From IMG/VR virus record IMGVR_UViG_3300045988_142508: DNA of 37,256 bases. One strand, written 5' to 3'. The notes under the pieces are model-generated. The model was not told where the DNA came from, ran no database searches, and saw only the letters and a list, made by a program, of their open reading frames with translations. The stretch comes from a virus. How positions within the stretch are numbered: position 1 is the first letter of the stretch; every line of letters begins with the position of its first letter. This document shows positions 9,611 to 35,694 of this stretch, piece after piece. Made by a program: the position numbers and the translations under genes.

Positions 9611-10492
9611 TCAGGCAGTGAGCAGGACGAAGCGGTTGATGTCGCGGATCCGGAAGCCGACCTCGATTTCGATTCGCACGGCGAACATGTTGTGTTCCCA
9701 CAGGTTGACCTGCTTGCCGTCGATGGTGATGGACGCCTGGTCGGAGATACTGGTCTGCAGGCCCTCGACGGAGCCCCATGCGGCGGAGGAGAATTCGCCG
9801 CACACGCCGAGGATCTCCTTGGCGGCGGTGCCTTCGGTGACCGCGGGGACGTGCACGCCCTTGGAGATCTGCACAGGATTGCCGAGGATGGTGGACACGT
9901 CGGACGAGCCGGTGCCGTCGAGGAACAGTGGTCGTCCGTTGTTGTCGGTGGCCTGTCGCAGGAGGCTTCGGCCCTGGGTGGACATTGCCCATCCGTCGAG
10001 GGTGCCGTCCGCCGCGGATACGGAGTCGTCGGCCGCGTTCAGGTTCTTCCACACGTCCTGACCGAGGCTAATCTTCTTTGCGGCCTTCAATGTGTCGAAG
10101 TCCGAGCCCGGAGCGTCAACCAATCCCATGATGGTCTTGTCGAAGGTGCGCGCGATAGCGCCCGGCCCCTTGGCGACCACTTGGTCGTAGAGGGCGCCGA
10201 AGTCGCGCTTGAACTGGTTGGAGAACGGCATGATGACCGCGATGGTGTACGGCAGCATGTCCTTCTTACCAAAGCCGACGCCGCTCTTGGGTTTCTCCGC
10301 TCCTTCATCGACCCACGCGGCCTCGGGGTCGCCGGTGATGATCGGCACGCGCGCGCCGTTGCCTGGAAGCTTCATTTCGGGTACGAGCTGCATGAACGCG
10401 CTCTGGTATTTCGCGGTCTGCCAGATCTCCGCCTGGGTTTCTGGAGTGAGGTCGAGGCCATTGCTTTTTCGGGTCATTGACGGATCTGCCAT
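9611..10492 (-). CDS. Major capsid protein, HK97-like fold, 293 aa
   Basis: MADPSMTRKSNGLDLTPETQAEIWQTAKYQSAFMQLVPEMKLPGNGARVPIITGDPEAAWVDEGAEKP... with SD GAAAGGA. It follows the scaffold gene. Confidence 0.9.
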   Translation of the reverse strand: MADPSMTRKSNGLDLTPETQAEIWQTAKYQSAFMQLVPEMKLPGNGARVPIITGDPEAAWVDEGAEKPKSGVGFGKKDMLPYTIAVIMPFSNQFKRDFGALYDQVVAKGPGAIARTFDKTIMGLVDAPGSDFDTLKAAKKISLGQDVWKNLNAADDSVSAADGTLDGWAMSTQGRSLLRQATDNNGRPLFLDGTGSSDVSTILGNPVQISKGVHVPAVTEGTAAKEILGVCGEFSSAAWGSVEGLQTSISDQASITIDGKQVNLWEHNMFAVRIEIEVGFRIRDINRFVLLTA

Positions 10493-10526: not shown

Positions 10527-11045
10527 TTACAGGAGCGTGTTCTTCATGGCGTTGGCGAAATCCTCGCGGCTGGAATGTTTCGGCTTGGCCTGTCCGGTGT
10601 GGGCGCTCTGCTCCGCGACGATTCCGCGGGATCTCATGCCGGCGAACACCTTCATGAGTCTTTCGGCGTAGTCGCCGATCTGCTTCTCATCGTCGCCGAC
10701 GAGGACGCTTGGATCGTTGATGCCGTGTTTGGCCGCGACCTCGACACGGATTGCGGAGAGCTCTTTCTCATGTTCGGCCTGTTTGGCTTCGTTTTTAAGC
10801 TTCTCGTTCTCTTCGAGCGCTTTGGAGAGCTTCGATTCGAGGTCGGCGGTGTGGCCGGCCTTCTCCTTGAGTTCCTCATAGTCGCTTTTCCTGCCGCGTT
10901 CCCTGCCGAGGCGTTCGCTGATGATGCGGTCGACTTCCTCCTGCGTGAAGGTCTTCGGCTTCGCGTCGTTCACGTCCTTCGTGGTCGGAGCGTGCTGTCC
11001 CGGCTCCTGCTGGCCGTCAGCGTCGGTCTGATTGTCTTCTGCCAT
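10527..11045 (-). CDS. Capsid scaffolding protein, 172 aa
   Basis: ATG at 11045. The protein is highly charged with a coiled-coil-like stretch (EELKEKAGHTADLESKLSKALEENEKLKNEAKQAEHEKE) and lies directly upstream of the capsid gene. Confidence 0.8.
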   Translation of the reverse strand: MAEDNQTDADGQQEPGQHAPTTKDVNDAKPKTFTQEEVDRIISERLGRERGRKSDYEELKEKAGHTADLESKLSKALEENEKLKNEAKQAEHEKELSAIRVEVAAKHGINDPSVLVGDDEKQIGDYAERLMKVFAGMRSRGIVAEQSAHTGQAKPKHSSREDFANAMKNTLL

Positions 11046-11157: not shown

Positions 11158-11193
11158 TAAAAGAAAAGCCACCACGTTTTCGACGTGATGGCT
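11158..11193 (-). terminator. Rho-independent terminator-like hairpin inside the late gene cluster
   Basis: Minus strand AGCCAUCACGU-loop-ACGUGGUGGCU forms 11 bp with one G.U pair. It is followed by TTTCTTTT and lies just downstream of the stop at 11203. Confidence 0.6.
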
Positions 11194-11202
11194 TTCTGGG
11201 AT

Positions 11203-11442
11203 TCAGAGATTTCCCAGCGCTTTTCTTCGCGCGTATTCGGACCGCAGCTCGTCGGTCGACACATAGTCGCCGACGGACCAGCGCTTCTTTCCTTCGTTCC
11301 TGACCCATTCATATTCGTCCTGCGGCATGGAGATGTCGCCATACTTGCGTTTGATTTCCGCAAGATGGCGCTCATCGGTGACTTCCTTCAAATCACCGGG
11401 CATAAACGTGAAGCGGTCGGAACGATCCATAGGCTCAATCAT
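11203..11442 (-). CDS. Hypothetical 79-aa protein translationally coupled (ATGA) to the MuF-ART gene; candidate ART-associated or immunity factor
   Basis: ATGA overlap at 11439-11442. Translation is MIEPMDRSDRFTFMPGDLKEVTDERHLAEIKRKYGD.... A terminator follows. Confidence 0.65.
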   Translation of the reverse strand: MIEPMDRSDRFTFMPGDLKEVTDERHLAEIKRKYGDISMPQDEYEWVRNEGKKRWSVGDYVSTDELRSEYARRKALGNL

Positions 11443-12854
11443 AGCAGTCTCAGATAAACGATCGGCCTGCCGTCGGATGCTCCAAGCCCTTCGAAACGAA
11501 GAGTCCTTCCTCTCGGCAGGAGAATTTCGTATTCTCCCGGATGCTGAGTGATCGGCTCCACATACACGCCGGCGCTTCCCGGCGGTACCAGGATTCTTGT
11601 GGCGATGCGGTCTTCCCCATCAACGTCAATGCCTCCCTCCTTGATGCTGGTGGCCATGTAGCCGATGTGTTCGAAGGTGCGACCGGTATTCAAATCGAAA
11701 AGCGACTCCATGTCGTTGACGTGGAACGTCGACAACCGCATCTGCCTGTCGACCGTGAAACGTTCTCGGGTGATATGGTCGGATATCGCTTCGTCGATGC
11801 ATTCGACCTGATGGATGACGTCTTTCGACGGGTTTCGTCCGCCGAACAGGTAGCCGTTGATACTTTTATAGCTGTCTCCGGTCCAATCCATCAAAGCCGC
11901 GATCTTCTCGTCGTTGGAGAATCTATCTCCAGGCATCCTGACGCTGTAATCCGACAATCTCGATAGTTCGGAAGCACTGATCGGAATCGATTTGCCGCTC
12001 CATCGAATCGTCGGTTGGGCAGTCACGCCATCATTGACCTCATCGTGATAGATGCGTCTCAATTGGGCTAGCGTGTCACGCCAGTCGCCGTCATCGCCGG
12101 CCGCGGCCTTGGCTGCCTGGTACATTTCACGATACTTGTCCGGATCGTATCCTTTGAGTTTGCTGCTGCCCCAGCTTGGCACGATGTCGCAATCGCAGTC
12201 CGCATGGTATTGCATCTGCCGTCCGGCGGTGTCCCCGCTCAGGTAGGAGAATCCACGCGAGGCGAGCATAAGGCAGAACGCGCATGTCTTAGCCCCTCGT
12301 GGGACGCGAGCCCAGCGAGGCTTGGTGGGATCGTTGGCCACGGCCCTCTGCATGGTCAGCCGTCCGACCGTCTGAACCAGATTCTGCACGTATTCCAGCG
12401 CCTGCTCCTCGTCGGCGAACGTTGGCCACAGGTCGTCGATGGTTCTTCCGGCGTTGTTGTGCACGACGCCGTTCTCATCTGGAATGACGTCCTTGTAATG
12501 CAATCCCATGAAGTCGGTGTTGTTGAAACCGCCTTCCATCTGCCAGACCGCACGGTCGGCGGTGATGGTCGGCGGATCGTATTCCGGCATGTCGATTCCG
12601 CAGTATTGCGCCCATAGGTCGCGCACATGGCTGTAGTAGTCGGATGCGAGTTTGTTGGCCGCGTCGGCGTACCGGTTGATCTCCGCTTTGATGAGTTCCT
12701 GGCTTTCACCGTCCCAGACAAGTCCTGAAACGCTGTTGCCTGCCTCCTTCTGCAAGCGGCTCATGGTGTCCGTGTAATCCTCGTACAGGTCGTTGAGGTC
12801 GAGTTCAAGCCTTCTGTGTTGTTCCGGAGGCAGGTTCAGACTGTTCAGGCTCAT
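11439..12854 (-). CDS. MuF-like minor capsid (head morphogenesis) protein fused to a C-terminal ADP-ribosyltransferase (exoenzyme C3/VIP2-type) domain, 471 aa
   Basis: It is located directly after the portal gene. The N-terminal half contains VPRGAKTCAFCLMLASRGF...YHADCDCDIVP (MuF-like). The C-terminal ~180 aa carry the ART signature: YKSINGYLFGG, the Arg region FTVDRQ, the STS-like GYMATSI, and the ExE motif GEYEILLPRG. Confidence 0.85.
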   Translation of the reverse strand: MSLNSLNLPPEQHRRLELDLNDLYEDYTDTMSRLQKEAGNSVSGLVWDGESQELIKAEINRYADAANKLASDYYSHVRDLWAQYCGIDMPEYDPPTITADRAVWQMEGGFNNTDFMGLHYKDVIPDENGVVHNNAGRTIDDLWPTFADEEQALEYVQNLVQTVGRLTMQRAVANDPTKPRWARVPRGAKTCAFCLMLASRGFSYLSGDTAGRQMQYHADCDCDIVPSWGSSKLKGYDPDKYREMYQAAKAAAGDDGDWRDTLAQLRRIYHDEVNDGVTAQPTIRWSGKSIPISASELSRLSDYSVRMPGDRFSNDEKIAALMDWTGDSYKSINGYLFGGRNPSKDVIHQVECIDEAISDHITRERFTVDRQMRLSTFHVNDMESLFDLNTGRTFEHIGYMATSIKEGGIDVDGEDRIATRILVPPGSAGVYVEPITQHPGEYEILLPRGRTLRFEGLGASDGRPIVYLRLL

Positions 12855-12992: not shown

Positions 12993-14498
12993 TCAGCCCC
13001 CCCCCGCAACAGTTGATTGCGTGGAAGCGTCGGTCTGGCGTTCCCCGTCGTCCTGCGTCTGCTCAGTCTGTTGGCGCATGCCGCGAATCTGGTCGAGGAC
13101 CTGTCCGGCTTGAGCCTTGCGCTGGTCGGCCTTCAAGCGGACGATCTCGCTTCTGCTCAATCCGGCGCGGGTCATGCCGACCTCGCTGTTGGCGAACGAG
13201 TCGATGCTGCCGGCGAGTTTGCTGAACGCGTCGGCGCTCATGGAGCTTGACGGAGTGTTGGGGTTCTTCCAGTCGACCTGCAGTTTCATCAGATCATCGT
13301 CTGACACCGATGGATCCTGTATGCGCGCCACGAGGCGTGCCGCCTGCAGGATCGATTCGCCGAAATCACGGTCGCAGTGGCGAGCCTCGATAATCAGGTC
13401 CTCGCGTTGCGCCTCGGTCGCGTCCGCTGACGTCGGATTCGCGTCCGATACGATGCCGAGCGAACTGGCGGGAATGTTCATCGCGCTGGCGAACATGGCG
13501 GCCCAGCTTTTCAGCATCGTCAGGTGCGGATCCATGCTGGATGCGGCCAGTTGGGTCACTGTCGGCGAATCACCGTCCGCGTCCTTGCTGATCATGTTGT
13601 AGCGACCCATGTAGAGTTTGAGCGCGGCGTCCGCGCTCAAGGACGCGAGCTCGTCGCTGGTGCCCATGAGCAGGATTTTCGGGAATGCGTAGAATTCGGC
13701 GTTCGCCTCGGCGCGCACAATGGTGCGGTTCGCGCCGTCGATGATGTTCATCGCGTCATGGCTGATGCGGGAGCGTCCGAATGGTTTGACTTCGGTGGCT
13801 TTGTAGGCGAGACGGAACACGCTGCATTCGCCGTTCACGGTGGGTTGCGATCCTTGCACGTACCATGTGCCGAGACTGCGGGACACGCTGATGTTGCGCG
13901 TCGGCATGTAGAGCACGAGTCCGATGGCCTCGTTGTCGTTGTTCACGTCGGTTATGGCCATGCATGCCTTGACGCGTCGGTTCGGGTAGTCCCAGATCGC
14001 TGCCGAGCTTTCCGCGGTGTGGGTGCGGATGAGAGGCCTGTTCTCCGCGTCTTGGATGACGCTGAGGAACGAGCAGCCGTGAATGAGTGCCGTCTGTATG
14101 GCCTGCTGAAGGACGCTGGTGAAGCCGATTCTGCTCATGAAGTCCTGTAGTTGGAACGGATCATCGACACCAGGCGAGACGAATCCCTCGAATACGCAAA
14201 GCTCGGCGAGCATGTCCACCGCCTTGCGTGCCCATCCCAATGGCGTGTAGTGGTCCTTGATGGACTGTGGAACCGTGAGACCGAAGTCGACCAGCGGCTC
14301 TTTCGATTCGTAGTATGCGGTGAGTTTCCGATTGCGGCTCGCATGACGTGTCCACACTTCGGCGAGCTCTGCGAGCAGTTCGTTCTCTTGGTTTGTAAGC
14401 CCGTCGATGCTGGTGGGCACAACCAGTTTCGTCAGCGCCACCGATCCTCCGGACGGCCGCCAGCTATCCGGAACGTTTGTCATCTGGATGTCGCCCAT
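12993..14498 (-). CDS. Portal protein (SPP1 gp6-like), 501 aa as written; possibly extended via the G9 tract
   Basis: It is adjacent to the TerL stop with SD GGAGGA. The size and sequence (..YYESKEPLVDFGLTVPQSIKDHYTPLGWARKAVDMLAE..) are typical of portals. Confidence 0.9.
   Translation of the reverse strand: MGDIQMTNVPDSWRPSGGSVALTKLVVPTSIDGLTNQENELLAELAEVWTRHASRNRKLTAYYESKEPLVDFGLTVPQSIKDHYTPLGWARKAVDMLAELCVFEGFVSPGVDDPFQLQDFMSRIGFTSVLQQAIQTALIHGCSFLSVIQDAENRPLIRTHTAESSAAIWDYPNRRVKACMAITDVNNDNEAIGLVLYMPTRNISVSRSLGTWYVQGSQPTVNGECSVFRLAYKATEVKPFGRSRISHDAMNIIDGANRTIVRAEANAEFYAFPKILLMGTSDELASLSADAALKLYMGRYNMISKDADGDSPTVTQLAASSMDPHLTMLKSWAAMFASAMNIPASSLGIVSDANPTSADATEAQREDLIIEARHCDRDFGESILQAARLVARIQDPSVSDDDLMKLQVDWKNPNTPSSSMSADAFSKLAGSIDSFANSEVGMTRAGLSRSEIVRLKADQRKAQAGQVLDQIRGMRQQTEQTQDDGERQTDASTQSTVAGGG
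12997..13005 (-). repeat. G9 homopolymer (C9 on plus) two codons before the portal stop
   Basis: The minus strand reads GTT GCG GGG GGG GGC TGA. See the finding on the -1 frame extension. Confidence 0.95.
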
Positions 14499-15935
14499 TT
14501 AGATTCCTCCGATGGTCTGTCGTCTTCCGGGATGTCGTTTTGTCGTGCACGCCCCGTACAGGGCGATCGTGGTTGATACGAGCGGCGTTATGTCGATATC
14601 CGAGCCGAGCTTGTTCCATGCGATCGCGCCGGACTGTCCCAATGGACGCGTGGTCGCGCCCTTGACGGCTGCGGCCAGCTGCGGCTGGTATTCGTCCGGC
14701 GGGTGCTTGAGCGTTCCGGCTTTGAGCATGTCGAGGAATCGGCCGCATGCGCGGCCCATCTCCTGCATGTTCGTCACGGTGACCTTCACGTGCGCGGCCT
14801 TCAGTTCGGGCAGCAGGCTCATTGCCGGGGACTGCGCGTCGATGACCACGCTGGCGGTCTTCGGCCAACGTTCGGCGAGCCAGTCCACGGCCCACATGGT
14901 TCCCGCCTGCCGCGCGTCCTTGATGTTCGCCATCTGGACGATGGCCGAACCGTCCGCGTATCGTAGCGCCGCTCCGATGGTCAGCACGCTCCTGTCCGGA
15001 GGCATGTCGATGCCGAAGCTCACCGTGCCGCCCTCGGGCACGTCGTCGACGGCCGCGGCCTGCCACAGGTCGGGACTGATGGCGTACGCGGTGGCGGTCT
15101 CGTCCCATATGCCAAGCGCCTCACGACGGAATGAATCGTCCGACAGGTTGTTGCGCATGCGCATGATTGCCTGTTCGCTTGTACGTTTCGGATAGCTGGG
15201 ATTCGCTTTAGCCCACTGTTCGCGGTCGTCCGAATCCGCGTCCTTGTCGGCGGCAAGCTCCACGTAGAGGAGGTTCCCGTCATGGTTCAGCGCATGCATG
15301 CGTTTCTCCGTGAACGCCTCGCACTGGTCTCCCGGCTTGGGTGGATTGCCCATATACACGACCAGGGGGTTAGGACTCGTGTTCAAAACCGGAATCATAT
15401 TGTCCATCGCGCGCACTGTGAGGATCTGCGCTTCATCGAACACGGCCACGTCCACGCTGTGCAATCCTCGGCCGAAGCCGTTTTCGCGGGCGCCGAACAT
15501 GATGCGGCTGCCGGACGTGAACGTGATCTCCTGTTGGCCGTTTGCTCTGCGGATGCGTTCCACGTACCGGCCGAGCACTGGATTATGCTCCATCTCGCAC
15601 ATGTCCGCGAATGTCTCGTCGCTGGTGCGCGTATGGTGGGCGGTCCAGATGGCTTTCAGGTTCGGTGTGAGTATCGCCTTGAGGAACAACGCGGTGCCGA
15701 CGGTGAAGGTTTTGCCGATCTGCCTGCAGCTGGACAGCACGGCGCCGTCCGCGCCACACGCATACTTGCCTTCCGCGTTCTTGGCGAACAGAAGCCACAA
15801 GAAGCCCTGCTGCCACAAGTCGAAACGGATGCCGGCCTTGCGCGCGGCTTTGTTGATTCGCGTGAACTCGCTGCCAACGATGCCTTCCGGCTGGCGGAGG
15901 ACCTTGGCGATTTCAGACAATCGACGCTCCGACAT
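14499..15935 (-). CDS. terL: Terminase large subunit, 478 aa
   Basis: Walker A-like SCRQIGKT, Walker B VDVAVFDEAQ, and a C-terminal nuclease-type region. Position between TerS and portal supports the call. Confidence 0.92.
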   Translation of the reverse strand: MSERRLSEIAKVLRQPEGIVGSEFTRINKAARKAGIRFDLWQQGFLWLLFAKNAEGKYACGADGAVLSSCRQIGKTFTVGTALFLKAILTPNLKAIWTAHHTRTSDETFADMCEMEHNPVLGRYVERIRRANGQQEITFTSGSRIMFGARENGFGRGLHSVDVAVFDEAQILTVRAMDNMIPVLNTSPNPLVVYMGNPPKPGDQCEAFTEKRMHALNHDGNLLYVELAADKDADSDDREQWAKANPSYPKRTSEQAIMRMRNNLSDDSFRREALGIWDETATAYAISPDLWQAAAVDDVPEGGTVSFGIDMPPDRSVLTIGAALRYADGSAIVQMANIKDARQAGTMWAVDWLAERWPKTASVVIDAQSPAMSLLPELKAAHVKVTVTNMQEMGRACGRFLDMLKAGTLKHPPDEYQPQLAAAVKGATTRPLGQSGAIAWNKLGSDIDITPLVSTTIALYGACTTKRHPGRRQTIGGI

Positions 15936-23073: not shown

Positions 23074-23297
23074 CGTGTTCCTCCGATCATGCCGAGCGTG
23101 TGAATGATGTCTTTGCTTTCCTCGGCGGTGAATTCCGCCAGCGTTATCTCATGGATGCCGTCGATAAGTCTGGCGGATCCGTCCACGTCCACCCGGACGT
23201 AGAAGCCACTCGACGCGAGCAGCACGTTATGCGGGTCATGGCGTCCCGACTTCGGCGGCGCCGGCGGATTCAGCCTCACGGCCTGTCTGATGCCCAT
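23070..23297 (-). CDS. Hypothetical protein, 75 aa
   Basis: The internal ATG at 23297 (MGIRQAVRLNPP...) lies just after the upstream stop at 23299. Confidence 0.5.
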   Translation of the reverse strand: MGIRQAVRLNPPAPPKSGRHDPHNVLLASSGFYVRVDVDGSARLIDGIHEITLAEFTAEESKDIIHTLGMIGGTR

Positions 23298-24551: not shown

Positions 24552-24600
24552 ACAAGCCAGCAGTAAGCGATATGCATGCCGGCAGCCATGTCTCACTCAT
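24253..24600 (-). CDS. Small membrane protein translationally coupled to the antirepressor gene, 115 aa
   Basis: TGATG stop/start overlap at 24600. TM helix LPACISLTAGLFSLSLALL. The C-terminal ~28 aa overlap the convergent plus-strand gene and look low-complexity. Confidence 0.5.
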   Translation of the reverse strand: MSETWLPACISLTAGLFSLSLALLRILVDLDPIGWILSLGECQESGKADAVGDVQITIIPVSNVRTGISSELANAVSFPVSDDAAVPGATHESNRNGTRGASNASAASSNGGVSL

Positions 24601-25394
24601 CACGCACCCGCTTCCAACGACGGCTGAGCGCGACCCCAATACCGGTCGATGAAATAGCGCTGCCCCTTGCCCGTGACCTTCGGAGTGCGGCTGACCGTGG
24701 TGTGCCCATCCGCATGGGTGACGGTGGTCTCCTTGATGCGGAACAGGCCGAGGTCCATCGCACGCTGTGTCGGCACGTTGCGATTCGAACCGGACTTGCC
24801 GAGATACCCGTCAGCCTGAAGAAGACGGAACAGTCTGTTCTGGCCGATGTCCATCCCGTTCTGCCGGAGCATCTTCGCGAGCTCGCCGACCAGGCACGTG
24901 CCGTCTGACGCGGCCACGGCGTCCGCGAACCGGGCCTTCGGCTCCAACATCTTGATCTGTGTGTCCTTGGCTTGAAGCTGCTGGTTCTTGCGCTCGATGG
25001 TCTTCTGCGCGACGAGCACGGCCCTGGCCATGATGTCCTCATCTGAATCCGACTCGGACGTCGGGATGTAGCCGCCGGTTTTGCGGATCTGGGGCAGCAC
25101 CTCATGCGTCACCCACCGCTTGAACTCGTGAGCCTCGGGCTTACGGGATGCGAGCACGAGAGCGTAGAGGCCGGATTCGGAGACGATTGACTTGTTTGGA
25201 CTGCCGGGAGTTCCATCATTTAAAGTGATGGAACTCTTCTCGTCGCCATCAAGCCGTGTCAACGCTTGGCTAACATTGTTAAGCTCAAGCACGGCGCATA
25301 CGTCCTTGGCGACGAACCAGGGCTCCCCCGCCTCGTCGGTCAAGGTGCGCAATGATGTGCCCTTGAAATCGAACTTCTGGATTTCATTGTTCAT
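24600..25394 (-). CDS. Phage antirepressor (Bro-N domain plus KilA-C/ANT domain), 264 aa
   Basis: ATG at 25394 with SD GGGAGAA. Bro-N region: FDFKGTSLRTLTDEAGEPWFVAKDVCAVLEL...ALTRLD. C-terminal region: FADAVAASDGTCLVGELAKMLRQNGMDIGQNRLFRLLQADGYL. Confidence 0.85.
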   Translation of the reverse strand: MNNEIQKFDFKGTSLRTLTDEAGEPWFVAKDVCAVLELNNVSQALTRLDGDEKSSITLNDGTPGSPNKSIVSESGLYALVLASRKPEAHEFKRWVTHEVLPQIRKTGGYIPTSESDSDEDIMARAVLVAQKTIERKNQQLQAKDTQIKMLEPKARFADAVAASDGTCLVGELAKMLRQNGMDIGQNRLFRLLQADGYLGKSGSNRNVPTQRAMDLGLFRIKETTVTHADGHTTVSRTPKVTGKGQRYFIDRYWGRAQPSLEAGA

Positions 25395-25418
25395 TGGATT
25401 CTCCCTAGAATCGAGTTT

Positions 25419-25895
25419 GTGAATAGTTTTCTTGAGGATCCGGCAGGCTGGGCTTCGACCATCATCGCCGGGGCGTCTTTGGCGTGGAACGTTCTGCAGC
25501 AGTTTCAAATCCACTCCATTCGCCGTAGGGACGATTTGTCCCAAACCGATTTGGAGCCTTTTCTTGATTCCACGTCGAACAGCATCGTGTATTTCCGGCT
25601 TGTTGGACCTCTGACGATGTATGACGTCCGAATCCCACCTCAGGCAACGTTCGGAACAAGCCCCTATACGCCGCTGTTGGCCAAGCGGTTGAGACCGAAT
25701 CAGATCTGCCATACCGGCTTCACCGGCGAGAATGCGGTGCTGCTACTTCCCGATGATTTCGAGATTGAGTGGCGGTCGTCCCACATGTCGCGCAGTCATA
25801 AGATTCGTGTATCTCTGACCGAGATAAAGAAGGAGGCGTGGAACCGCAGCTCGAAGAGTGTTCGGCAGATTCGCGAGAGGGCTTCGAGGCCGTAG
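25419..25895 (+). CDS. Membrane-anchored hypothetical protein in lysogeny orientation, 158 aa (GTG start; start uncertain)
   Basis: N-terminal TM helix GWASTIIAGASLAWNVL. Codon usage is coding-like throughout. It is antisense to the tail of ORF 25720..26325. Confidence 0.45.
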   Translation: MNSFLEDPAGWASTIIAGASLAWNVLQQFQIHSIRRRDDLSQTDLEPFLDSTSNSIVYFRLVGPLTMYDVRIPPQATFGTSPYTPLLAKRLRPNQICHTGFTGENAVLLLPDDFEIEWRSSHMSRSHKIRVSLTEIKKEAWNRSSKSVRQIRERASRP

Positions 25896-27472: not shown

Positions 27473-27868
27473 ATGGATAGCAGCACAACACGCACCGATC
27501 TGGTGATTTGCAAATATATCAGCCAAGCAATGGAAGCCAATGGCATTACCCAGGCCGACCTCTCCAAGGCTCTTGAAGGACGATCAAAAGGTTATGTCAG
27601 CGACCGAGTACTCGGTAAAAGAAGTTGGGCAATCAGCGAGTTAGACAGACTCGCTCCACTCTTTGGGCTTCCGGACGCTCTTTCACTGGTCGCGGCAGCC
27701 TGTGGGTCAATCTCCATCGAGGCCGCCCGCGCCTACGAAGCCCGCGAGCGCGAGTCTCAGATCACCGATGATCTCATCGACCGTATCGCCGCGCACCCCG
27801 AAGACTATGACGTGGCCGCAAACACGGATCCGAACGCACGCCTCGAAGCCGAGACGCCTGACGAGTGA
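27473..27868 (+). CDS. CI-like XRE-family HTH repressor, 131 aa
   Basis: HTH region: ISQAMEANGITQADLSKALEGRSKGYVSDRVLGKRSW. No SD lies upstream of the ATG, so a leaderless or weakly translated mRNA is possible. It is the first gene of the plus-strand lysogeny operon. Confidence 0.75.
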   Translation: MDSSTTRTDLVICKYISQAMEANGITQADLSKALEGRSKGYVSDRVLGKRSWAISELDRLAPLFGLPDALSLVAAACGSISIEAARAYEARERESQITDDLIDRIAAHPEDYDVAANTDPNARLEAETPDE

Positions 27869-27887
27869 TGGATTGAAAGGAACACGA

Positions 27888-28592
27888 ATGACCGAATACA
27901 ACCTGTATTGCGATGAAAGCTGTCATCTGGAACATGACGACAGCGACGTGATGGTCCTTGGAGCCCTCATTATCCCCAAGGATAAAAGGCAGGAAATCAC
28001 AGAGAATATTCTCCAGATCAAGGCACGTTACGGTGTCAAGGCACGCACGGAAGTGAAGTGGACGAAGGCCAGCATGCCGAAAATCGACCTGTACAAGGAT
28101 TTGCTGAACTGCTTCTTCCTGGATGACGACATGAGGTTCCGTGTTCTGGTGGCCAAGAAGACACGTCTGAATCATGAGGCATGGTCCCAGTCACACAACG
28201 ATTGGTACTACAAGATGTATTTCACCATGCTGAACAGGCTGTTCGATTCCACGAACACCTACAACGTGTACGTGGACATCAAGGACACGCACTCCGCGCA
28301 ACGTACCGAGAAACTGGAGGAAGTGCTAGCAAACAGCCACTACGACTTCAACCACGAATGCATCAAGAAAGTGCAACCAATCCGTTCAGACGAAGTGCAA
28401 ATGATGCAAATCACCGACGTGATCAACGGAGCCGTATGCAGGGCGAACCGGACGACCATCCCCCAACCATCAGGCGCGAAAGCTGAAATCATCGACTACA
28501 TACGCATGAGATCAAAGCTCCGACTCACCCAGTCAACGACCTTGGGCACGCGCAAGTTCAACATCTTCGTCTGGGAAGGACGGAACGCATGA
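27888..28592 (+). CDS. DUF3800-family protein, 234 aa
   Basis: SD GAAAGGAA. N-terminus YNLYCDESCHLEHDD, the central ...TEVKWTKAS..., and the C-terminal QMMQITDVINGAV fit my recollection of the DUF3800 pattern (xYxDESG ... KW ... QxxDxxxG). G+C is lower by eye than the structural genes. Confidence 0.7.
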   Translation: MTEYNLYCDESCHLEHDDSDVMVLGALIIPKDKRQEITENILQIKARYGVKARTEVKWTKASMPKIDLYKDLLNCFFLDDDMRFRVLVAKKTRLNHEAWSQSHNDWYYKMYFTMLNRLFDSTNTYNVYVDIKDTHSAQRTEKLEEVLANSHYDFNHECIKKVQPIRSDEVQMMQITDVINGAVCRANRTTIPQPSGAKAEIIDYIRMRSKLRLTQSTTLGTRKFNIFVWEGRNA

Positions 28593-29683: not shown

Positions 29684-29840
29684 AAGAAGCTCAGCGTCCA
29701 CATACCGCGACGGGAAACAAAAAAGGGTCCCGCCCGAACACAGTCGGACGGAACCCAAGGAACCAACAATCAGCATTTCCGTTTTCACCAAAATGAGGTT
29801 CCACGCACAGTGTAGCGCGGATCCTCGGAAAGAGACAACC

Positions 29841-31121
29841 ATGGCCAGAGCGTTCGTAGACGACAGATGGCTCAAAAACGACGAGGACGGTAACCCACCC
29901 AGCAGGGCCGCGAAACAGTCGCTGGCCAATGCGAAGGATCCGATGAAAGCCAATGTGCCCGGCAAATGGCGGTCCGCGCTGTACGGCCAAGGCTCACGGT
30001 GGAGATGCCGCTGGTACACGCTTCGAGACGGCAAACGCGTCCAGAAATCACGGAACTTCGCCAAGCTCCGTGACGCTGAGGAATACGCAGCGGCCATCGA
30101 GGACGACATCAGACGCGGCAAATACCGCGACCCGCAGCAGGAACTACGCATCTTCCGGGACGTTGCCTCCGAATGGACGGACGGCAAGATGGATATCAAA
30201 CAGGGCACTTTGGGCAGATACCGCCGCGAATTGCGCGTTTATATCAACCCCAAGTGGGGCGATCGCACACTGAGGGAAATCCAACGCGACGAACTGCAAC
30301 AGTGGGTCACGCAGCTCACCGAAGGCGGGTATCCCGCCGAACTGCAGGACGATCGCGAATCGAAGCCATTGAGTCCACGCAGCATCCGCAACATCGTCAA
30401 GGTCGTCATGGGCGGTGTCATGGAATTCGCTTTGGAGCACGGCTGGATCGGAGAGAACCCCATTGAAAAGGTCACCGTGCCGCGCATCACGCAATCCGAT
30501 GACGACATGGTGTTCCTTACCGTCGAGGAGGTGGAGTTGCTGGCCGGCATGGCCGAACGGGCAGGACGGCCGGTAGACGGGCTGATCGTCCGCTGGCAGG
30601 CATACACCGGTGCCCGCATTGGCGAGACGCTGGCACTCAAATGCGGCGACGTGGATGTGGAATCACGCAGGGCGCGCATCCGCCGCACTTGGACCGACGA
30701 CGGCAAAGGCAGTCTTGTGCTGGGCACGCCGAAGAACGGCAAACCGCGCAGCATCGCCATACCCAGATTCCTCATACCGTCCATCGAACGGCAGATGGAG
30801 GGCATGGGCGACGACGACTGGCTGTTCCGCGCGGCAAGAGGCGGGAACCTGTGGACGAACACGTGGCGGACGCGTGTCTGGCGAAAGGCCGTCCGACTGG
30901 CCGGCATGGAGGACGAGGGCGTGACCATCCATAGTTTGAGGCATAGCTATGCGAGCTTTGCGATTGCTCAAGGCGCAGACGTGAAGACCCTACAGATGCA
31001 GCTCGGCCACTCCTCACCCAGCATCACGCTGAACACATACACGGCTCTCTGGCCGGAACGATTGGACGATGTGGCGGACGCGATTGGCGAGCTGCGCGCT
31101 GAACAGTTGAAGACCGTCTAG
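29841..31121 (+). CDS. int: Tyrosine integrase, 426 aa
   Basis: ATG at 29841. Catalytic boxes YTGARIGETLAL (R) and HSLRHSYASFAIAQGADVKTLQMQLGHSSPSITLNTY (H-x-x-R ... H ... Y). The attP follows immediately. Confidence 0.92.
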   Translation: MARAFVDDRWLKNDEDGNPPSRAAKQSLANAKDPMKANVPGKWRSALYGQGSRWRCRWYTLRDGKRVQKSRNFAKLRDAEEYAAAIEDDIRRGKYRDPQQELRIFRDVASEWTDGKMDIKQGTLGRYRRELRVYINPKWGDRTLREIQRDELQQWVTQLTEGGYPAELQDDRESKPLSPRSIRNIVKVVMGGVMEFALEHGWIGENPIEKVTVPRITQSDDDMVFLTVEEVELLAGMAERAGRPVDGLIVRWQAYTGARIGETLALKCGDVDVESRRARIRRTWTDDGKGSLVLGTPKNGKPRSIAIPRFLIPSIERQMEGMGDDDWLFRAARGGNLWTNTWRTRVWRKAVRLAGMEDEGVTIHSLRHSYASFAIAQGADVKTLQMQLGHSSPSITLNTYTALWPERLDDVADAIGELRAEQLKTV

Positions 31122-33151: not shown

Positions 33152-33463
33152 TCAATCTGTGTTCGCGATATGCGCGTCACGTATGTCTTGGATCATCGAG
33201 GTTCCGGTTCCATTGCCGCCCAGACCGTGGTAAGCGGCATATATTCGTTCCGCGCTTTGCTTCAACGGAATGCTCGCAACACCACCTGCATCGACCATCT
33301 GACGGTACAGAGCCTCGAGTTTGCAGAACAACAGTTCCCTGACGCCCTCATGCAGTGGATCGTGACGTTGGTCGACCTTGCTCAGAATCCAGGTGACGAA
33401 CACGCCGCTGCCTCCGCTGCCGATGATGGCGATAACGATTGCGACGATGGTTTCCTGGCTCAT
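33152..33463 (-). CDS. Holin-like / lysis-associated membrane protein, 103 aa
   Basis: SD GGAAGGA. One N-terminal TM helix (IVAIVIAIIGSGGSGVFVTWIL). It lies directly upstream of the endolysin gene. Confidence 0.5.
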   Translation of the reverse strand: MSQETIVAIVIAIIGSGGSGVFVTWILSKVDQRHDPLHEGVRELLFCKLEALYRQMVDAGGVASIPLKQSAERIYAAYHGLGGNGTGTSMIQDIRDAHIANTD

Positions 33464-33482
33464 TGGGAATCCTTCCGAAAGG

Positions 33483-33536
33483 AAAATCCCACACGTGGCT
33501 ACCGTTGGAAGCTGCGATAACCACGTGTGGGATTTT
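33483..33536. promoter_or_regulatory. 16-bp perfect inverted repeat (bidirectional terminator/attenuator-like) between the lysis cassette and the shufflon recombinase gene
   Basis: AAAATCCCACACGTGG-N22-CCACGTGTGGGATTTT. T-runs follow the stem on both strands. It ends 10 nt before the rin ATG and 19 nt before the 33463 start. Confidence 0.6.
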
Positions 33537-33546
33537 GGAGGTTGAA

Positions 33547-34419
33547 ATGTTGTTGGGAACGTTTGTGGATGAGGTCTGGTGGCCCTCCTGCGGGAAGCTT
33601 CGCGAGTGCACGAGGGTGGGCTACGAGTCGGCCTACCGCTGCCACATCCAGCCGAAATGGGCTGGCGTCGACATGGAGTCGATCACCGCGAACGACATCG
33701 AGGAGTGGCTCGGCTCGTTCAATCAGGCCGGCGCCGCACGCAAGGCGTGGGCCGTGCTGCGGGCGATACTCCGACTCGCCTATCGCAAGGGAGTCACCGA
33801 CAATGACGTGACACGTCGTGAAATCAGACTGCCGCACCTGCGGCGGTATGAGCCGCGCGTGCTCGACGCCAGACAGGTAAGACGGCTGCTCAAAGGCTTC
33901 TACGGTCACGCGTTGGAAGCCTGGTTATTGGTCTCCGTCTGCGCGGGACTGCGCCGATGCGAGTCCGTCGGCATTGAATGGGCCGACTTGGATTTACGCC
34001 GGGGAACCGTGACCGTCAAAAGGTCAGTGCAATGGGTCGCTGGACATGAAACGGTCACCGACCCGAAGACCGACCAGAGCCGACGGACGGTCGCACTACC
34101 ACGGTTCGCAGTCAAACGGCTCGCGCAATTGCGCCACGGCAGAACCGGCAGGCTGGTCGGCGATCTGAACGCCAACCAGGTGGCAGCTCATTACACGTCA
34201 TGGTGCCAACGCATGAAACTCCCCTGCGTGCCGCCAAGGAACCTCAGGCACACCTTCGGCACTCTGGCAATCGCTGCGGGAGCCGATATCTCAGTGGTCG
34301 CACGACAACTCGGTCACAGCGACATCAAGACAACCGCCCGCTACTATCTCCGCCCCGATTTGTCCGTGCTGAGAAGTCTGCAGCGGGCATGGGAAAGACT
34401 CATCATCGGAGCCGCGTAG
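33547..34419 (+). CDS. rin: Shufflon-associated tyrosine recombinase (Rci/Rin-like), 290 aa
   Basis: SD GGAGG-N6-ATG. Catalytic boxes CAGLRRCES (R) and RNLRHTFGTLAIAAGADISVVARQLGHSDIKTTARYY (H-x-x-R..H..Y). Its stop codon TAG is the first triplet of recombination site A. Confidence 0.85.
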   Translation: MLLGTFVDEVWWPSCGKLRECTRVGYESAYRCHIQPKWAGVDMESITANDIEEWLGSFNQAGAARKAWAVLRAILRLAYRKGVTDNDVTRREIRLPHLRRYEPRVLDARQVRRLLKGFYGHALEAWLLVSVCAGLRRCESVGIEWADLDLRRGTVTVKRSVQWVAGHETVTDPKTDQSRRTVALPRFAVKRLAQLRHGRTGRLVGDLNANQVAAHYTSWCQRMKLPCVPPRNLRHTFGTLAIAAGADISVVARQLGHSDIKTTARYYLRPDLSVLRSLQRAWERLIIGAA

Positions 34420-34433
34420 CTTTCCGTAACCCT
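34417..34433 (+). repeat. Shufflon recombination site A (TAGCTTTCCGTAACCCT)
   Basis: One of five 17-mers sharing the core TTCCGTA(A/G)CC. It heads silent cassette V4. Confidence 0.85.
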
Positions 34434-34680
34434 GCCGTTCGGGAAAAGCAATGGCAACGGAGGAGTCTATCCAATCGGGAAAATACCCAATCCGAACGCG
34501 ATTAAGGCTTTGAATGGCAGAGCCATACTATCGTCTGGGACGACAGTGGCGATTCCATTCATCCACCCGTCATACCTGCAACGTTCGGTCCAAGTATCGA
34601 TCGCGCCGGACGGGACCGTTAACCTGCTCGTTGGTCCTGAAGTTGCTGTCACAGGTGGAATCGTGGAAATCCATTTTTAA
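34423..34680 (+). other. Silent start-less C-terminal cassette V4 (SVT-LPFGKSNGNGGVYPIGK...GGIVEIHF*)
   Basis: Open for 85 codons in the frame set by TCC GTA ACC of site A. It has no start codon or SD and is absent from the ORF track. Confidence 0.75.
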
Positions 34681-34696
34681 TAGCATTCCGTAACCA
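34681..34696 (+). repeat. Shufflon recombination site B (TAGCATTCCGTAACCA)
   Basis: It immediately follows the V4 stop (TAA 34678-34680) and heads cassette V2. Confidence 0.8.
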
Positions 34697-34992
34697 AGAC
34701 TTTGATTGAATCGCAGTATGGCACCGTGACCGGCGTGAAGTCTGGCAAGATCGCGCAGATTAGCATCAACTGGAAAAGCGCGAGCACTGACTCGTGGGGC
34801 AGTGGACAGTTCGGTACAATTCCGGAGGGTTGGAGGCCTGCGGTCGTCACGCATGGCACGTGGTCGGGGCGTGATGGTGGCAGCCAGCGTGATTTCATTC
34901 TGGAAACGAATGGCAATTTCCGTTATGTCAATTGTGGCGCGGTGCAGAACAGCGGCACGTTCTCCGGGACGATGACCTACATTCTCGCCTGA
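34687..34992 (+). other. Silent C-terminal cassette V2 (SVT-KTLIESQYGTVTGVKSGK...TMTYILA*)
   Basis: It is in frame with TCC GTA ACC of site B and corresponds to ORF 34702..34992. Confidence 0.75.
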
Positions 34993-34993
34993 A

Positions 34994-35010
34994 TAGCTTT
35001 CCGTAACCCT
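34994..35010 (+). repeat. Shufflon recombination site C (TAGCTTTCCGTAACCCT)
   Basis: It is identical to site A, follows the V2 stop, and heads cassette V3. Confidence 0.85.
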
Positions 35011-35335
35011 TTCCGCGCCGAACACGAACTGGAAAGTGGATTACCGCACCGCCTTGGTCGGCAGGATGCTTCTAGTCGCATTCCACGCCAATCGCCTCAA
35101 CACCGATTGGAACGCGGCGAAAGAGTGGGAGGTGTCACAGATTCTCAAACTCCCAGCCGGTTTGGAGGCGGCGTTCGAGGTACATTGCGCCGCAATATCC
35201 AATTCGAGCATCGGATTGCATGGCGTCGAAGTGCAGGTGGCGCAGCACACCATCGGCTTGCGTTCCTCGGGAAAGATGACAGTAAGCGCAAACGGGGGAT
35301 GGGTCGAAGGCTGTATCACGGTGCCACTTGTCTAG
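35000..35335 (+). other. Silent C-terminal cassette V3 (SVT-LSAPNTNWKVDYRTALVG...CITVPLV*)
   Basis: It is in frame with TCC GTA ACC of site C and corresponds to ORF 35036..35335. Confidence 0.75.
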
Positions 35336-35688
35336 GAGAACGTCACTCCACTAGGAATCGGCATGGAAAAACGCTGCATCAGAATGTTCTCCCTGCCAAT
35401 TCCGCCAAGTAACGTAATACTGCCATCCGGATTCCAATTCGCTTGCTTGTTGTAGTGCGGATCCGCAAGACTTGATCCAACACATCCCAGTCCAATTGTG
35501 GCCGATGGACGTATCCCTGACTGATATAACCAGACACGATAGTTCGAGATTTCGACGGTTGATTTGAAAGAGCTCAAATCGACATACAGCATGTTGCCCT
35601 TGACGGTAATCGTGTTGGATCCACCATATAGGGCGCCAACAAACGATCCTGTGTCCTGAAACTTAAAGGTAGCAGTGAGGGCTACGGA
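35332..35688 (-). other. Silent C-terminal cassette V5 (SVA-LTATFKFQDTGSFVGALYGG...SGVTFS*)
   Basis: It is in frame with TCC GTA GCC of site D, includes ORF 35332..35592, and runs in the same orientation as the expressed gene. Confidence 0.7.
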
Positions 35689-35694
35689 AAGCTA
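35678..35694 (-). repeat. Shufflon recombination site D (minus strand TAGCTTTCCGTAGCCCT)
   Basis: It lies 4 nt downstream of the stop of the expressed gene (35699) and heads cassette V5. Confidence 0.8.

Follow-up and report, generated by a model that had tools for sequence, protein, structure and literature searches.

The window, that is, the whole 37,256-nucleotide stretch analyzed here (IMG/VR virus record IMGVR_UViG_3300045988_142508), carries on its minus strand a gene for a 471-amino-acid (aa) protein (11439..12854) followed by an open reading frame (ORF) for a 79-aa protein (11203..11442), both located where the preliminary description had placed them. According to the ORF call and to matches with the Pfam families PF25310 and PF03496, the first gene encodes a MuF4(VG15)-ADP-ribosyltransferase (ART) fusion of the polymorphic toxin type, while the second encodes a candidate cognate ART immunity protein. 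The toxin gene lies 138 bp downstream of a gene for an SPP1-type portal protein (12993..14498, minus strand; PF05133, E 7e-29; phrog_104, E 6e-103), and the same order of portal and muf-ART genes on one strand is found at the related loci L003-6, L022, and L103-105. A single small ORF separates the toxin gene from the scaffold gene (10527-11045), and the major capsid gene is found at 9611-10492. The presence of a tyrosine integrase gene (29793-31121) and an antirepressor gene (24600-25712) indicates that the phage is temperate. Its relatives are Bifidobacterium prophage-type phages, and members of the lineage turn up very often in human gut viromes, with 111 relatives in IMG/VR and 2920 member sequences in one of its protein clusters. 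The reading frame of the 471-aa protein is uninterrupted in related IMG/VR contigs.

The ATG of the small ORF overlaps the TGA of the toxin gene (ATGA), and this junction is kept in 80 of 80 related viral contigs. The overlap from which translational coupling had been proposed is thus present, but translation may actually begin elsewhere: many homologues of the 79-aa protein begin at the equivalent of Met5 (MDRSD...), and the true start of the small ORF may be at 11430, 9 nt past the upstream stop, giving a 75-aa product, rather than at the overlapping ATG. The terminator reported after the small ORF was also recovered. This intrinsic-terminator-like hairpin (11164..11196, minus strand) starts 7 nt past the small-ORF stop, consists of a 14-bp stem running from 11196 and then a U-rich tract, has a predicted free energy of -20.5 kcal/mol (z = -5.2 relative to shuffles), and marks the end of the toxin/immunity pair. 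A scan limited to sigma-70 consensus sites detected no independent promoter from which lysogens could express the small ORF, which speaks weakly against a role of its product as an antidote in lysogens.

The N-terminal half of the 471-aa protein had been described as a MuF/minor-capsid module, and this assignment holds in a modified form. Residues 14 to 248 (12111..12815, minus strand), presumed to be the capsid/portal-targeting module, match the VG15 model PF25310 (E 9e-41), whereas the classical Phage_Mu_F model PF04233 gave no match at E <= 0.1 in the protein. Mycobacteriophage Angel gp4, the seed of Jamet's MuF4 family, matches PF25310 too (E 2e-33). The only segment that aligns pairwise with Angel gp4 (E 6e-5) is a Cys/His core conserved in the MuF domain (TCAFC...YHADCDC, aa 190-226; 12177..12287, minus strand), where C191, C194, and neighboring residues are invariant among the aligned sequences. 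Confidence of the AF2 model is low over this core and falls below pLDDT 50 in the linker between the MuF and ART domains (aa 273-282; 12009..12038, minus strand). Comparison of SPP1 gp7 (MuF1), as a single sequence, with a 23-sequence profile of the N-terminal domain using hhalign gave a probability below 1%, which is not significant. For portal binding and packaging, we accordingly extrapolate from this distant relative via published HMM-HMM links (PMC5576092). On sequence grounds, we place the 471-aa protein among the polymorphic toxins of the MuF family, in the MuF4/VG15 subtype, with its toxicity predicted. The protein is also 98.5% identical to a coding sequence of Siphoviridae sp. ctl617 annotated as a "head maturation protease," a label given in both PHROGs and GenBank. 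Since no protease family was matched and homologues found by tblastn in curated actinophage records are named "MuF-like minor capsid protein," we rejected this label as a carry-over annotation.

The C-terminal ART module (aa 284-471; 11442..12005, minus strand) was delimited using PF03496, PDB sequence matches, Foldseek, and pLDDT. PF03496 matched aa 313-455 with 74.7 bits (gathering cut-off, 23.4 bits; E 8e-21), in line with the ART domain claimed earlier, and the PHROG ART toxin family phrog_3895 was matched with an E of 5e-13. PDB sequence matches obtained with phmmer were VIP2, Certhrax, CDTa, C3, and iota. All four motifs of the R-S-E signature listed in the preliminary description are present, i.e., YKSINGYL (aa 329-336), FTVDRQ (aa 366-371), GYMATSI (aa 398-404), and GEYEILLPRG (aa 440-449), and the last three align with VIP2 as FTVDR/ITVYR, GYMATSI/GYMSTSL, and GEYEILL/SEKEILL. 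The alignment places the catalytic Arg at R370 (codon 11745..11747, minus strand), the conserved Ser at S403 (11646..11648, minus strand), and the ExE/ARTT motif at E441-Y-E443 (11526..11534, minus strand), opposite E-K-E of VIP2. R370, S403, and E443 are invariant across 16 homologues that are 41-97% identical, and position 441 is E or Q, the Q occurring in two lineages. One detail of the signature had to be corrected: the first Ser of the "STS-like" motif is Ala in all 16 homologues, so the motif reads A-T-S and only S403 is conserved. The missing Ser counts to some extent against a functional toxin, although Ala at this position is tolerated in some ARTs. The AF2 model has a pLDDT of 80-91 over the ART region, and a Foldseek search of the PDB returned 138 matches at E <= 1e-3, the top ones being Certhrax, Plx2A, CDTa, VIP2, and C3 (E about 1e-10; TM 0.64-0.70, relative to single-domain ART targets), with Lmo0066 also matched at E about 1e-10. 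The structural resemblance to C3/VIP2 anticipated earlier is therefore borne out by the model, and we conclude that the C-terminal half is a C3/VIP2-type R-S-E ART, its enzyme activity being predicted. A word-indexed search with the ART domain alone yielded only 3 relatives and was far less informative than a search with the N-terminal domain.

A substrate cannot be fixed by sequence alone, and the ART-fold domain might be an NAD+ glycohydrolase or a nucleic-acid ADP-ribosyltransferase rather than a protein arginine ART. Precedents for such activities are Tne5 (PMC13285283), a tRNA-modifying Rhs ART (PMC13617354), and CmdT (PMC11618068). All of the nearest sequence and structure relatives of the window's domain are, however, protein ARTs (C3, VIP2, CDTa, iota, and Certhrax). 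The ARTT-type ExE motif, moreover, is classically linked to arginine specificity. Given that Bxa, the closest characterized MuF-ART, also modifies arginines (PMC11699363), we regard an NADase or nucleic-acid-modifying enzyme as quite improbable here.

The weak and partial match of aa 315-356 to the Alt-like RNA polymerase ADP-ribosyltransferases of phrog_802 (E 1.6e-5) brings up a different role for the fusion. A capsid-delivered ART could act on one particular host target, for instance RNA polymerase or a protein involved in defence, and by modifying it favor the incoming phage or bias the choice between lysis and lysogeny; the small protein would then be a timing device that silences the enzyme in the producing cell until packaging. 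In favor of this role, the gene lies in the head operon and its ART is fused to a head protein, and across 80 viral contigs conservation is higher in the ART half than in the MuF half. MuF-fused ARTs of the Alt/VIP2 family have also been argued to be packaged and injected (Iyer et al. 2022, PMC9503650). T4 Alt itself, an R-S-E ART of that family, is thought to be capsid-borne and to act on the newly infected cell (PMC9503650). In T4, a virulent myovirus, Alt is nevertheless an internal head protein that stands alone, whereas the ART of the window is fused to a MuF4 domain and its C-terminal domain is one of many interchangeable payloads.

This interchangeability became apparent when relatives of the N-terminal domain were compared. 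The same domain is joined to ART, EndoU (PF14436), PF18451, PF15644, or unknown domains, or has no extension at all; the ART extension past the MuF domain is about 190 aa. In the non-ART phage PMBT6, aa 1-277 are shared at 55% identity and are followed by another C-terminus and another small ORF. The L020 protein is 74% identical up to about aa 325, yet it continues with an EndoU C-terminus and is accompanied by an unrelated 82-aa ORF. Nucleases and deamidases (EndoU, PF15644) freely take the place of the C-terminal domain, as would be expected of a generic toxic payload more than of a finely adjusted takeover factor. T4 Alt is not known to have, or to need, an immunity protein. Together with the chromosomal orphan copies of the small gene described below, which suggest that cells gain by neutralizing the enzyme, these observations make a host-takeover function a possible but rather doubtful reading.

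The exchange of the C-terminal domain extends to the downstream gene. A profile of the small-protein family found a member downstream of all seven of the seven MuF-ART lineages examined (E 3e-12 to 4e-41), while none of the three small ORFs located beside non-ART C-terminal domains matched it. Conservation of the small ORF next to ART-type MuF genes, on which the proposed partnership depended, was thus found, together with its absence after non-ART variants. The C-terminal domain and the small ORF swap as a module, and the small ORF strictly co-occurs with the ART. At L103 and L104, the identity with the window is 81-88% for the MuF domain, 51-53% for the ART, and 62-69% for the small protein. 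In a mirror-tree analysis, divergence of the small protein correlated with that of the ART (r 0.73) no better than with that of the MuF domain (r 0.71), and the analysis is therefore uninformative about the partner.

The small protein belongs to a very narrow family. Its homologues form 25 clusters, and an exhaustive profile search of 1.84 billion proteins returned 33 matches, about 28 of which are true representatives, with no link to any wider immunity family. Long multi-stretch profile matches (TPR, SH3-like repeats, low complexity) were set aside as spurious. No match was found in Pfam, PHROG, or NCBIfam. The AF2 model comprises three helices (pLDDT 80), and a Foldseek comparison with the PDB found no neighbor below E = 2. 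Because the protein has no recognizable fold or family, the way in which it would act is proposed from context. The dN/dS values of the small ORF, which range from 0.07 to 0.36, indicate purifying selection; the lowest value, 0.07, was obtained for the pair L007 and L013, where both copies are non-phage. These results define a Bifidobacterium-restricted, previously undescribed family of candidate immunity proteins.

The position of the small ORF between the muf and scaffold genes in a morphogenesis operon, with translational coupling, would also suit a small regulator or a head-assembly accessory, e.g., a chaperone or adaptor needed for folding the ART-bearing MuF protein or for loading it into procapsids. 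The lack of a recognizable immunity family or fold and a divergence that tracks the MuF domain as well as the ART also favor such a role. The small ORF is, however, missing from close relatives with the same MuF backbone and a non-ART C-terminus. It remains complete, and purifying selection still acts on it, at loci that have lost the head genes and whose toxin gene is destroyed or absent. A chromosomal island of small paralogous ORFs, of the kind typical of polyimmunity loci, contains it as well. An accessory or regulatory function therefore seems very unlikely to us. The layout of an immunity partner, as originally suggested for this ORF, has instead gained good comparative support from co-occurrence, purifying selection, and orphan copies.

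Those copies outside complete toxin loci take several forms. The ART of L012 and L015 breaks off after RERFTV, with other sequence in place of its STS/ExE half, while the small ORF is intact and 87-92% identical. Small genes beside decayed toxin genes are found at these two loci and at L007, and orphan small genes without a toxin gene are found at L009-11 and L013. The small genes of L007, L009, and L013 adjoin CRISPR arrays of two different types, and L016 is a Bifidobacterium pseudolongum island of small paralogous, immunity-like ORFs. For L007, L014, and L015, DNA homology of the orphan or remnant copy runs through the terminator. It is conceivable that the orphan copies are antidotes retained by the host as a defence against phages or lysates, neutralizing the enzyme of a MuF-ART phage as it enters with the DNA or is freed at lysis and so protecting non-lysogens, but we consider this unlikely. 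If it were true, injected phage effectors and chromosomal "immunity" genes would make up a separate level of the conflict between phages and their Bifidobacterium hosts. The CRISPR arrays adjoining the orphans contained no convincing spacer against the window phage, the sole match being one exact 20-nt match of L010 to window positions 23242-23261.

Considering these data as a whole, we think the locus is probably a two-gene toxin/immunity cassette inside the operon for head morphogenesis in a temperate siphophage of Bifidobacterium. The N-terminal ~280 aa would act as a minor-head-protein module that binds the portal and places a few copies in the capsid, by analogy with SPP1 gp7, and we infer from this packaging that the protein would be injected. 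The C-terminal ~190 aa, an R-S-E mono-ADP-ribosyltransferase with an ExE motif, would most likely use NAD+ to modify arginines on bacterial proteins. The 75-79-aa protein, with its three predicted helices and presumably no enzymatic activity, would most likely bind and physically block the ART domain. An N-terminal segment that is conserved yet unstructured, DRFTFMPGDLKxVTD, might contribute to an interface covering the NAD+ pocket. The small protein could in this way shield the cell in which phage is being produced while the late genes are expressed, and shield lysogens or cells bearing orphan copies from incoming toxin.

The locus shares its architecture with published systems. MuF polymorphic toxins, including those with ART domains, have been described (Jamet et al. 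2017, PMC5576092), and ART domains make up 14% of the 191 MuF toxins of that study, which also names a MuF4-EndoU toxin of Bifidobacterium bifidum. The preliminary description placed MuF-toxin fusions mainly in phages of Firmicutes and in some actinophages, which agrees with the same study. As in the window, the genes reported there belong to temperate phages and lie directly downstream of the portal gene, the proteins combine a MuF N-terminal domain with an exchangeable toxin C-terminus of at least 100 aa, and different toxin domains are followed by different small ORFs of under 150 aa (PMC5576092). Presence in the virion is only hypothesized for the MuF toxin family as a whole (PMC5576092). 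The available text does not specifically describe the MuF4-ART of Bifidobacterium phages found here, does not define a downstream immunity family, and does not report orphans by CRISPR arrays or in polyimmunity islands for MuF systems (PMC5576092). It does cite the EFV toxin of an Enterococcus faecalis V583 prophage, which, as here, joins MuF to a C3-like ART in a lysogenic phage and is, per that citing paper, an active ART toxic in yeast. EFV differs from the window protein (MuF4/VG15) by its MuF1 (PF04233) N-terminal domain and Firmicutes host, and no immunity partner is described for it in the accessible part (PMC5576092).

MuF-Apk2, with its partners IapK and Aph1, provides a second parallel, since it also consists of a MuF N-terminal domain, a toxic enzyme, and a downstream small protein (PMC12226406, PMC10083569). 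IapK occludes the Apk2 active site and is specific to its cognate partner. The payload is, in contrast, a (p)ppApp synthetase and not an ART, and Aph1 is a second, enzymatic immunity protein that has no counterpart at the window (PMC12226406, PMC10083569).

The closest parallel is Bxa, a MuF-ART of prophage PhiBxa in Bacteroides stercoris (Alexei et al. 2024, PMC11699363). Its gene likewise belongs to the head module of a prophage from a gut commensal, and its MuF N-terminal domain, as here, occurs in relatives joined to other toxins. A small non-enzymatic protein encoded next to it, Bsi, binds to the ART and blocks it. For the 79-aa protein, a candidate counterpart of Bsi, no relatives were detected beyond its own small family. 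The host of PhiBxa belongs to another phylum, and Bxa to another MuF subfamily, than those of the window (PMC11699363). Bxa is also accompanied by the hydrolase BAH, whereas the window has no ARH1-like gene: the 79-aa ORF is too small for an ARH and the next gene is the scaffold gene. The absence at the locus of a second immunity gene of the ADP-ribosyl hydrolase type, unlike Bxa, counts to some extent against the two-gene cassette.

Since Bxa acts on epithelial cells as well as being antibacterial (PMC11699363), and the phage lineage of the window is very common in human gut viromes, the MuF-ART might similarly be freed at prophage induction and lysis and act on mammalian gut epithelial proteins to the benefit of the lysogen population, leaving the small protein to prevent only self-intoxication before release. 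No feature of the sequence points to a eukaryotic target, however, and both a secretion signal and an ARH partner are absent. Orphan immunity genes in non-lysogenic chromosomes are also better explained by a toxin that enters bacteria. We therefore view a host-directed factor as improbable and favor the toxin/immunity cassette directed at bacteria.

MuF toxins are widespread but barely characterized phage-borne effectors in gut bacteria, and only the Apk2 and Bxa types have been studied experimentally. The type of system reported here is already known, as MuF-ART toxins with adjacent immunity genes have been published and partly characterized (Bxa, PMC11699363), and the current picture of how MuF toxin systems are built is unchanged by the locus. 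What is new is the small, Bifidobacterium-restricted family of candidate immunity proteins together with its orphan copies. The locus is a compact and very common MuF4-ART/candidate-immunity pair of human-gut Bifidobacterium phages, and its truncated toxins with an intact antidote, its orphans, and the polyimmunity island amount to natural experiments through which questions of immunity and delivery become testable in an important commensal genus. The ART module and the small ORF also stand apart in base composition, both having a GC3 of 0.66, compared to 0.74-0.84 for the flanking genes.

The window comprises the complete genome of a temperate, Bifidobacterium-type siphophage. It encodes a tyrosine integrase (29793-31121), a GH25/LysM endolysin, an antirepressor, and a second tyrosine recombinase, is about 92% identical at the DNA level to the metagenomic phage Siphoviridae sp. 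ctl617 across 66% of its first 25 kb, and has blocks in common with the Bifidobacterium phages PMBT6 and Bbif-1 according to DNA comparison. On the minus strand, the genes for the large terminase (14499-15935), an SPP1-type portal (12993-14498; PF05133, E 7e-29), a 471-aa protein (11439-12854; PF25310 and PF03496), a 79-aa protein (11203-11442), a scaffold (10527-11045), and the major capsid protein (9611-10492) follow one another in the classical head-module order.

The N-terminal half of the 471-aa protein contains a VG15 domain (PF25310) spanning aa 14-248 (E 9e-41), with no match to the classical Phage_Mu_F model in Pfam, and a profile of 23 N-domain homologues aligned with SPP1 gp7 without significance. 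According to Jamet et al. (2017, PMC5576092), the MuF superfamily has been extended by a "MuF4" family, the seed of which is mycobacteriophage Angel gp4. Since Angel gp4 matches PF25310 (E 2e-33), its Cys/His core can be aligned with the 471-aa protein, and curated actinophage homologues carry the label "MuF-like minor capsid protein," we classify the 471-aa protein by sequence as MuF4 type. For its relationship to Mu GpF and SPP1 gp7, we rely on the HMM-HMM comparison published in the same study (PMC5576092) and on the invariant post-portal position. The annotation "head maturation protease," used in PHROGs and in GenBank (e.g., OY725605.1 20832-22247), was rejected since no protease family matches, and seems to have been transferred in error onto MuF-like proteins.

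The ADP-ribosyltransferase (ART) domain that the preliminary description had recognized at the C terminus from four motifs is borne out. ADPrib_exo_Tox (PF03496) covers aa 313-455 (E 8e-21; 74.7 bits versus a Pfam cut-off of 23.4 bits), and the motifs YKSINGYL (329-336), FTVDRQ (366-371), GYMATSI (398-404), and GEYEILLPRG (440-449) align with the catalytic Arg, STS, and ExE segments of VIP2 in a sequence search of PDB chains, which also returned Certhrax, CDTa, iota, C2-I, and C3. Among 16 aligned homologues (41 to 97% identical), the catalytic residues R370, S403, and E443 do not vary; the segment described as STS-like keeps its last Ser (S403), whereas the first is Ala in 16/16 sequences. 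At position 441, two lineages have Gln in place of the Glu that most share. An AlphaFold2 model built from this alignment has a pLDDT of 80 to 91 across the ART region, and Foldseek gave 138 PDB matches at E ≤ 1e-3 (E ~1e-10 at the top), led by Certhrax, Plx2A, CDTa, VIP2, C3bot, and the Listeria Lmo0066 ART, with TM scores of up to 0.70 when normalized to single-domain ARTs. Because sequence, catalytic residues, and fold all agree, the ART assignment is secure, and the identification of the two domains, MuF and ART, is virtually certain. ExE-type R-S-E ARTs usually modify arginine. This is also the residue modified by Bxa, the MuF-ART of a Bacteroides stercoris prophage (PMC11699363). As the sequence does not reveal the substrate, NADase or nucleic-acid-directed activity of the ART is possible.

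The next gene had been described as a translationally coupled 79-aa ORF followed by a terminator. The ATGA overlap is real and is kept in 80/80 related IMG/VR contigs (L023-L102; region equivalent to window 11203-12854), all encoding a 100% identical small protein. Many homologues start at the equivalent of Met5, and the true product may therefore be a predicted 75-aa protein starting at 11430; either start would allow termination-reinitiation coupling. The terminator was also recovered, with a 14-bp hairpin and U tract (-20.5 kcal/mol, z -5.2) after a gap of 7 nt. The protein family is real and very small: a word-indexed search gave 25 clusters, and an exhaustive profile search of 1.84 billion proteins gave 33 representatives, about 28 of them genuine. 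The small protein has no match in Pfam, PHROGs, or NCBIfam, and its AlphaFold2 model (pLDDT 80), a three-helix bundle after a conserved, low-confidence N-terminal segment (DRFTFMPGDLKxVTD), has no structural neighbor in the PDB.

This layout, previously read as that of an immunity or regulatory partner, recurs beside ART-type MuF genes. A family member follows the MuF-ART gene in 7/7 lineages (the window, the database loci L003-6, L022 from B. cuniculi, and L103-L106), with ART domains 41 to 53% identical to that of the window and profile matches of E 3e-12 to 4e-41 for the small ORFs. The ORFs following the EndoU-type MuF genes of PMBT6 and L020, relatives with a window-like MuF N-domain, are unrelated, and neither these nor an 81-aa ORF in locus L007 match the family profile. 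Compared with the window, L103 and L104 are 81 to 88% identical in the MuF domain but only 51 to 53% in the ART and 62 to 69% in the small protein, which is evidence that the latter two behave as a unit. Selection on the small gene is apparent from pairwise dN/dS values of 0.07 to 0.36 wherever dS is unsaturated, with 0.07 between L007 and L013, both non-phage copies. Small-protein divergence correlates no better with that of the ART (r 0.73) than with that of the MuF domain (r 0.71). We consider it likely that the 79-aa protein is the immunity partner of the ART. In the L022 (2501-3913, B. cuniculi type) and L105 (1501-2715) lineages, Q-E-E replaces E-x-E at the ARTT motif (RQEEVLLPR), and the small partners are the most divergent of the family (34 to 45% identity). 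In C3-like ARTs, this type of change is associated with an acceptor switch from Arg to Asn.

A search confined to the N-domain retrieved 274 relatives from Bifidobacteriaceae and neighboring actinobacteria, in which the C terminus is an ART (PF03496), EndoU (assigned by PF14436 or by NCBI name), PF18451, PF15644 (a papain-fold glutamine deamidase toxin), or an unknown domain, or is absent. The PMBT6 protein is 55% identical over aa 1-277 and diverges completely thereafter, and the L020 MuF-EndoU protein is 74% identical up to about aa 325 and then switches. GC3 is 0.66 for the ART module and small ORF, versus 0.74 for the MuF module and 0.78 to 0.84 for neighboring head genes; the low value common to ART and small ORF fits a cassette moving as a unit. 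In L023-L102, which represent a very common gut phage lineage, the toxin differs from that of the window by 0 to 5 substitutions in the ART half and 2 to 16 in the MuF half; with the small protein identical, the payload/antidote cassette is thus more uniform than its carrier domain. On a MAG contig (L014 1332-6275), an integrase-like gene 73% identical to that of the window precedes a second MuF fragment (40% identical), after which come MuF-ART and the small ORF (89% DNA identity), without a portal gene in between. This could be a remnant left by rearrangement, or an element resembling a satellite; the contig ends straight after the terminator.

The small gene also occurs without the toxin. 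In loci L012 and L015, the ART gene is cut right after the Arg motif (…RERFTV/AGS…) and its STS/ExE half is replaced, and homology to the window resumes exactly at an intact small ORF (87 to 92% identity). In L007, a MuF remnant with a different C-terminal domain precedes the 81-aa ORF and then the small ORF, the order that would result if a newly arriving toxin/immunity cassette had displaced an older one but left the immunity gene of the latter in place. Wherever the ART is displaced, the 79-aa-family gene is directly preceded by the acidic 81-aa ORF (MSEMYTTFELEAMTD...; L007 3741-3986, L012 4743-4988, L015 1043-1286). This ORF, which belongs to no known family and shows 92% identity between two loci from the same genome, probably encodes the immunity protein of the displacing cassette. 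In L009-L011 and L013, the small gene is chromosomal and solitary except for a 77/84-aa ORF with which it forms a pair; no toxin or phage gene lies nearby. In two B. pseudolongum loci (L016 and L017), four paralogous ORFs of some 95 aa each are interspersed with two family members. In L016 (5600-8104, Bifidobacterium pseudolongum subsp. globosum LMG 11569; L017 is similar), these paralogues occupy one strand and the family members the other, one of the latter being a 135-aa fusion of the family N-terminal half with a 95-aa-type module. The island, which has a Vsr endonuclease gene upstream of it and gives no Pfam match for any of its members, probably represents a polyimmunity locus. Polymorphic toxin systems are typified by orphan immunity genes such as these. 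They have been discussed as a possibility for MuF systems (PMC11699363). A purely morphogenetic role of the small ORF is contradicted both by this persistence outside phages and by its absence from close non-ART relatives. The head context would be compatible with an Alt-like, target-specific takeover role for the ART, but that role fits less well with a payload freely exchanged for nucleases and deamidases and with antidotes retained by hosts.

Orphan or remnant copies lie 380 to 470 bp beyond CRISPR arrays in three loci (L009 4001-6018; L013 61-3553; L007 4001-5915). The arrays are of two repeat types, with a 61-bp period by cas1 and cas6e-like genes or a 67-bp period by cas4-cas1-cas2, and several "ORFs" called there by gene finders are translated repeats (GIIPACAGNT, DHPRMCGEH, or SSPHVRGT). 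The three loci probably reflect two independent events, and the adjacency may be due to chance. A single exact 20-nt match between the array region beside the L010 orphan copy and the early region of the window (23242-23261) is too short for a spacer hit.

We propose that the 471-aa protein would be loaded into procapsids through its MuF domain, while stoichiometric binding by the co-translated small protein would hold the ART inactive in the producing cell. The toxin would then enter a new cell with the DNA, or be freed at lysis, and ADP-ribosylate bacterial proteins; lysogens, or cells with orphan copies, would be protected. We give capsid delivery an even chance. Both Bxa and MuF-Apk2, a MuF toxin with another payload, are neutralized by adjacent small proteins occluding the active site (PMC12226406, PMC11699363). 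Action on mammalian cells, as with Bxa, is possible and would not exclude the proposed action on bacteria. The system is of a known kind, since MuF-ART fusions were catalogued from 2012 to 2022 (PMC3482391, PMC5576092, and PMC9503650), the EFV toxin (cited in PMC5576092) and Bxa (PMC11699363) have been characterized, a MuF4-EndoU toxin was already noted in B. bifidum (PMC5576092), and the B. cuniculi homologue is already labeled an ART domain protein in UniRef. The literature searched contained neither the 75- to 80-aa immunity-candidate family, nor its orphan/polyimmunity copies in Bifidobacterium, nor the recurrence of the small gene a few hundred bp past two types of CRISPR array. The initial observation is confirmed and its interpretation supported, in a system ordinary in kind yet a clean, abundant example with a new small partner family.

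Elsewhere in the window, a DUF3800 protein (27663-28592; PF12686, E 8e-15) adjoins the integrase on the strand opposite the structural genes and is a possible moron or accessory gene. After the second tyrosine recombinase (33439-34419), the 17-nt sequence TAGCTTTCCGTAACCCT occurs twice, at 34417-34433 and 34994-35010, and once in inverted orientation, at 35678-35694, and collagen-repeat tail-fiber-like ORFs occur near these repeats and at both window ends (138-1049 and 36756-37238). The region (33439-35694) looks like a shufflon or invertible receptor-binding-protein switch, as described for Bifidobacterium prophages.
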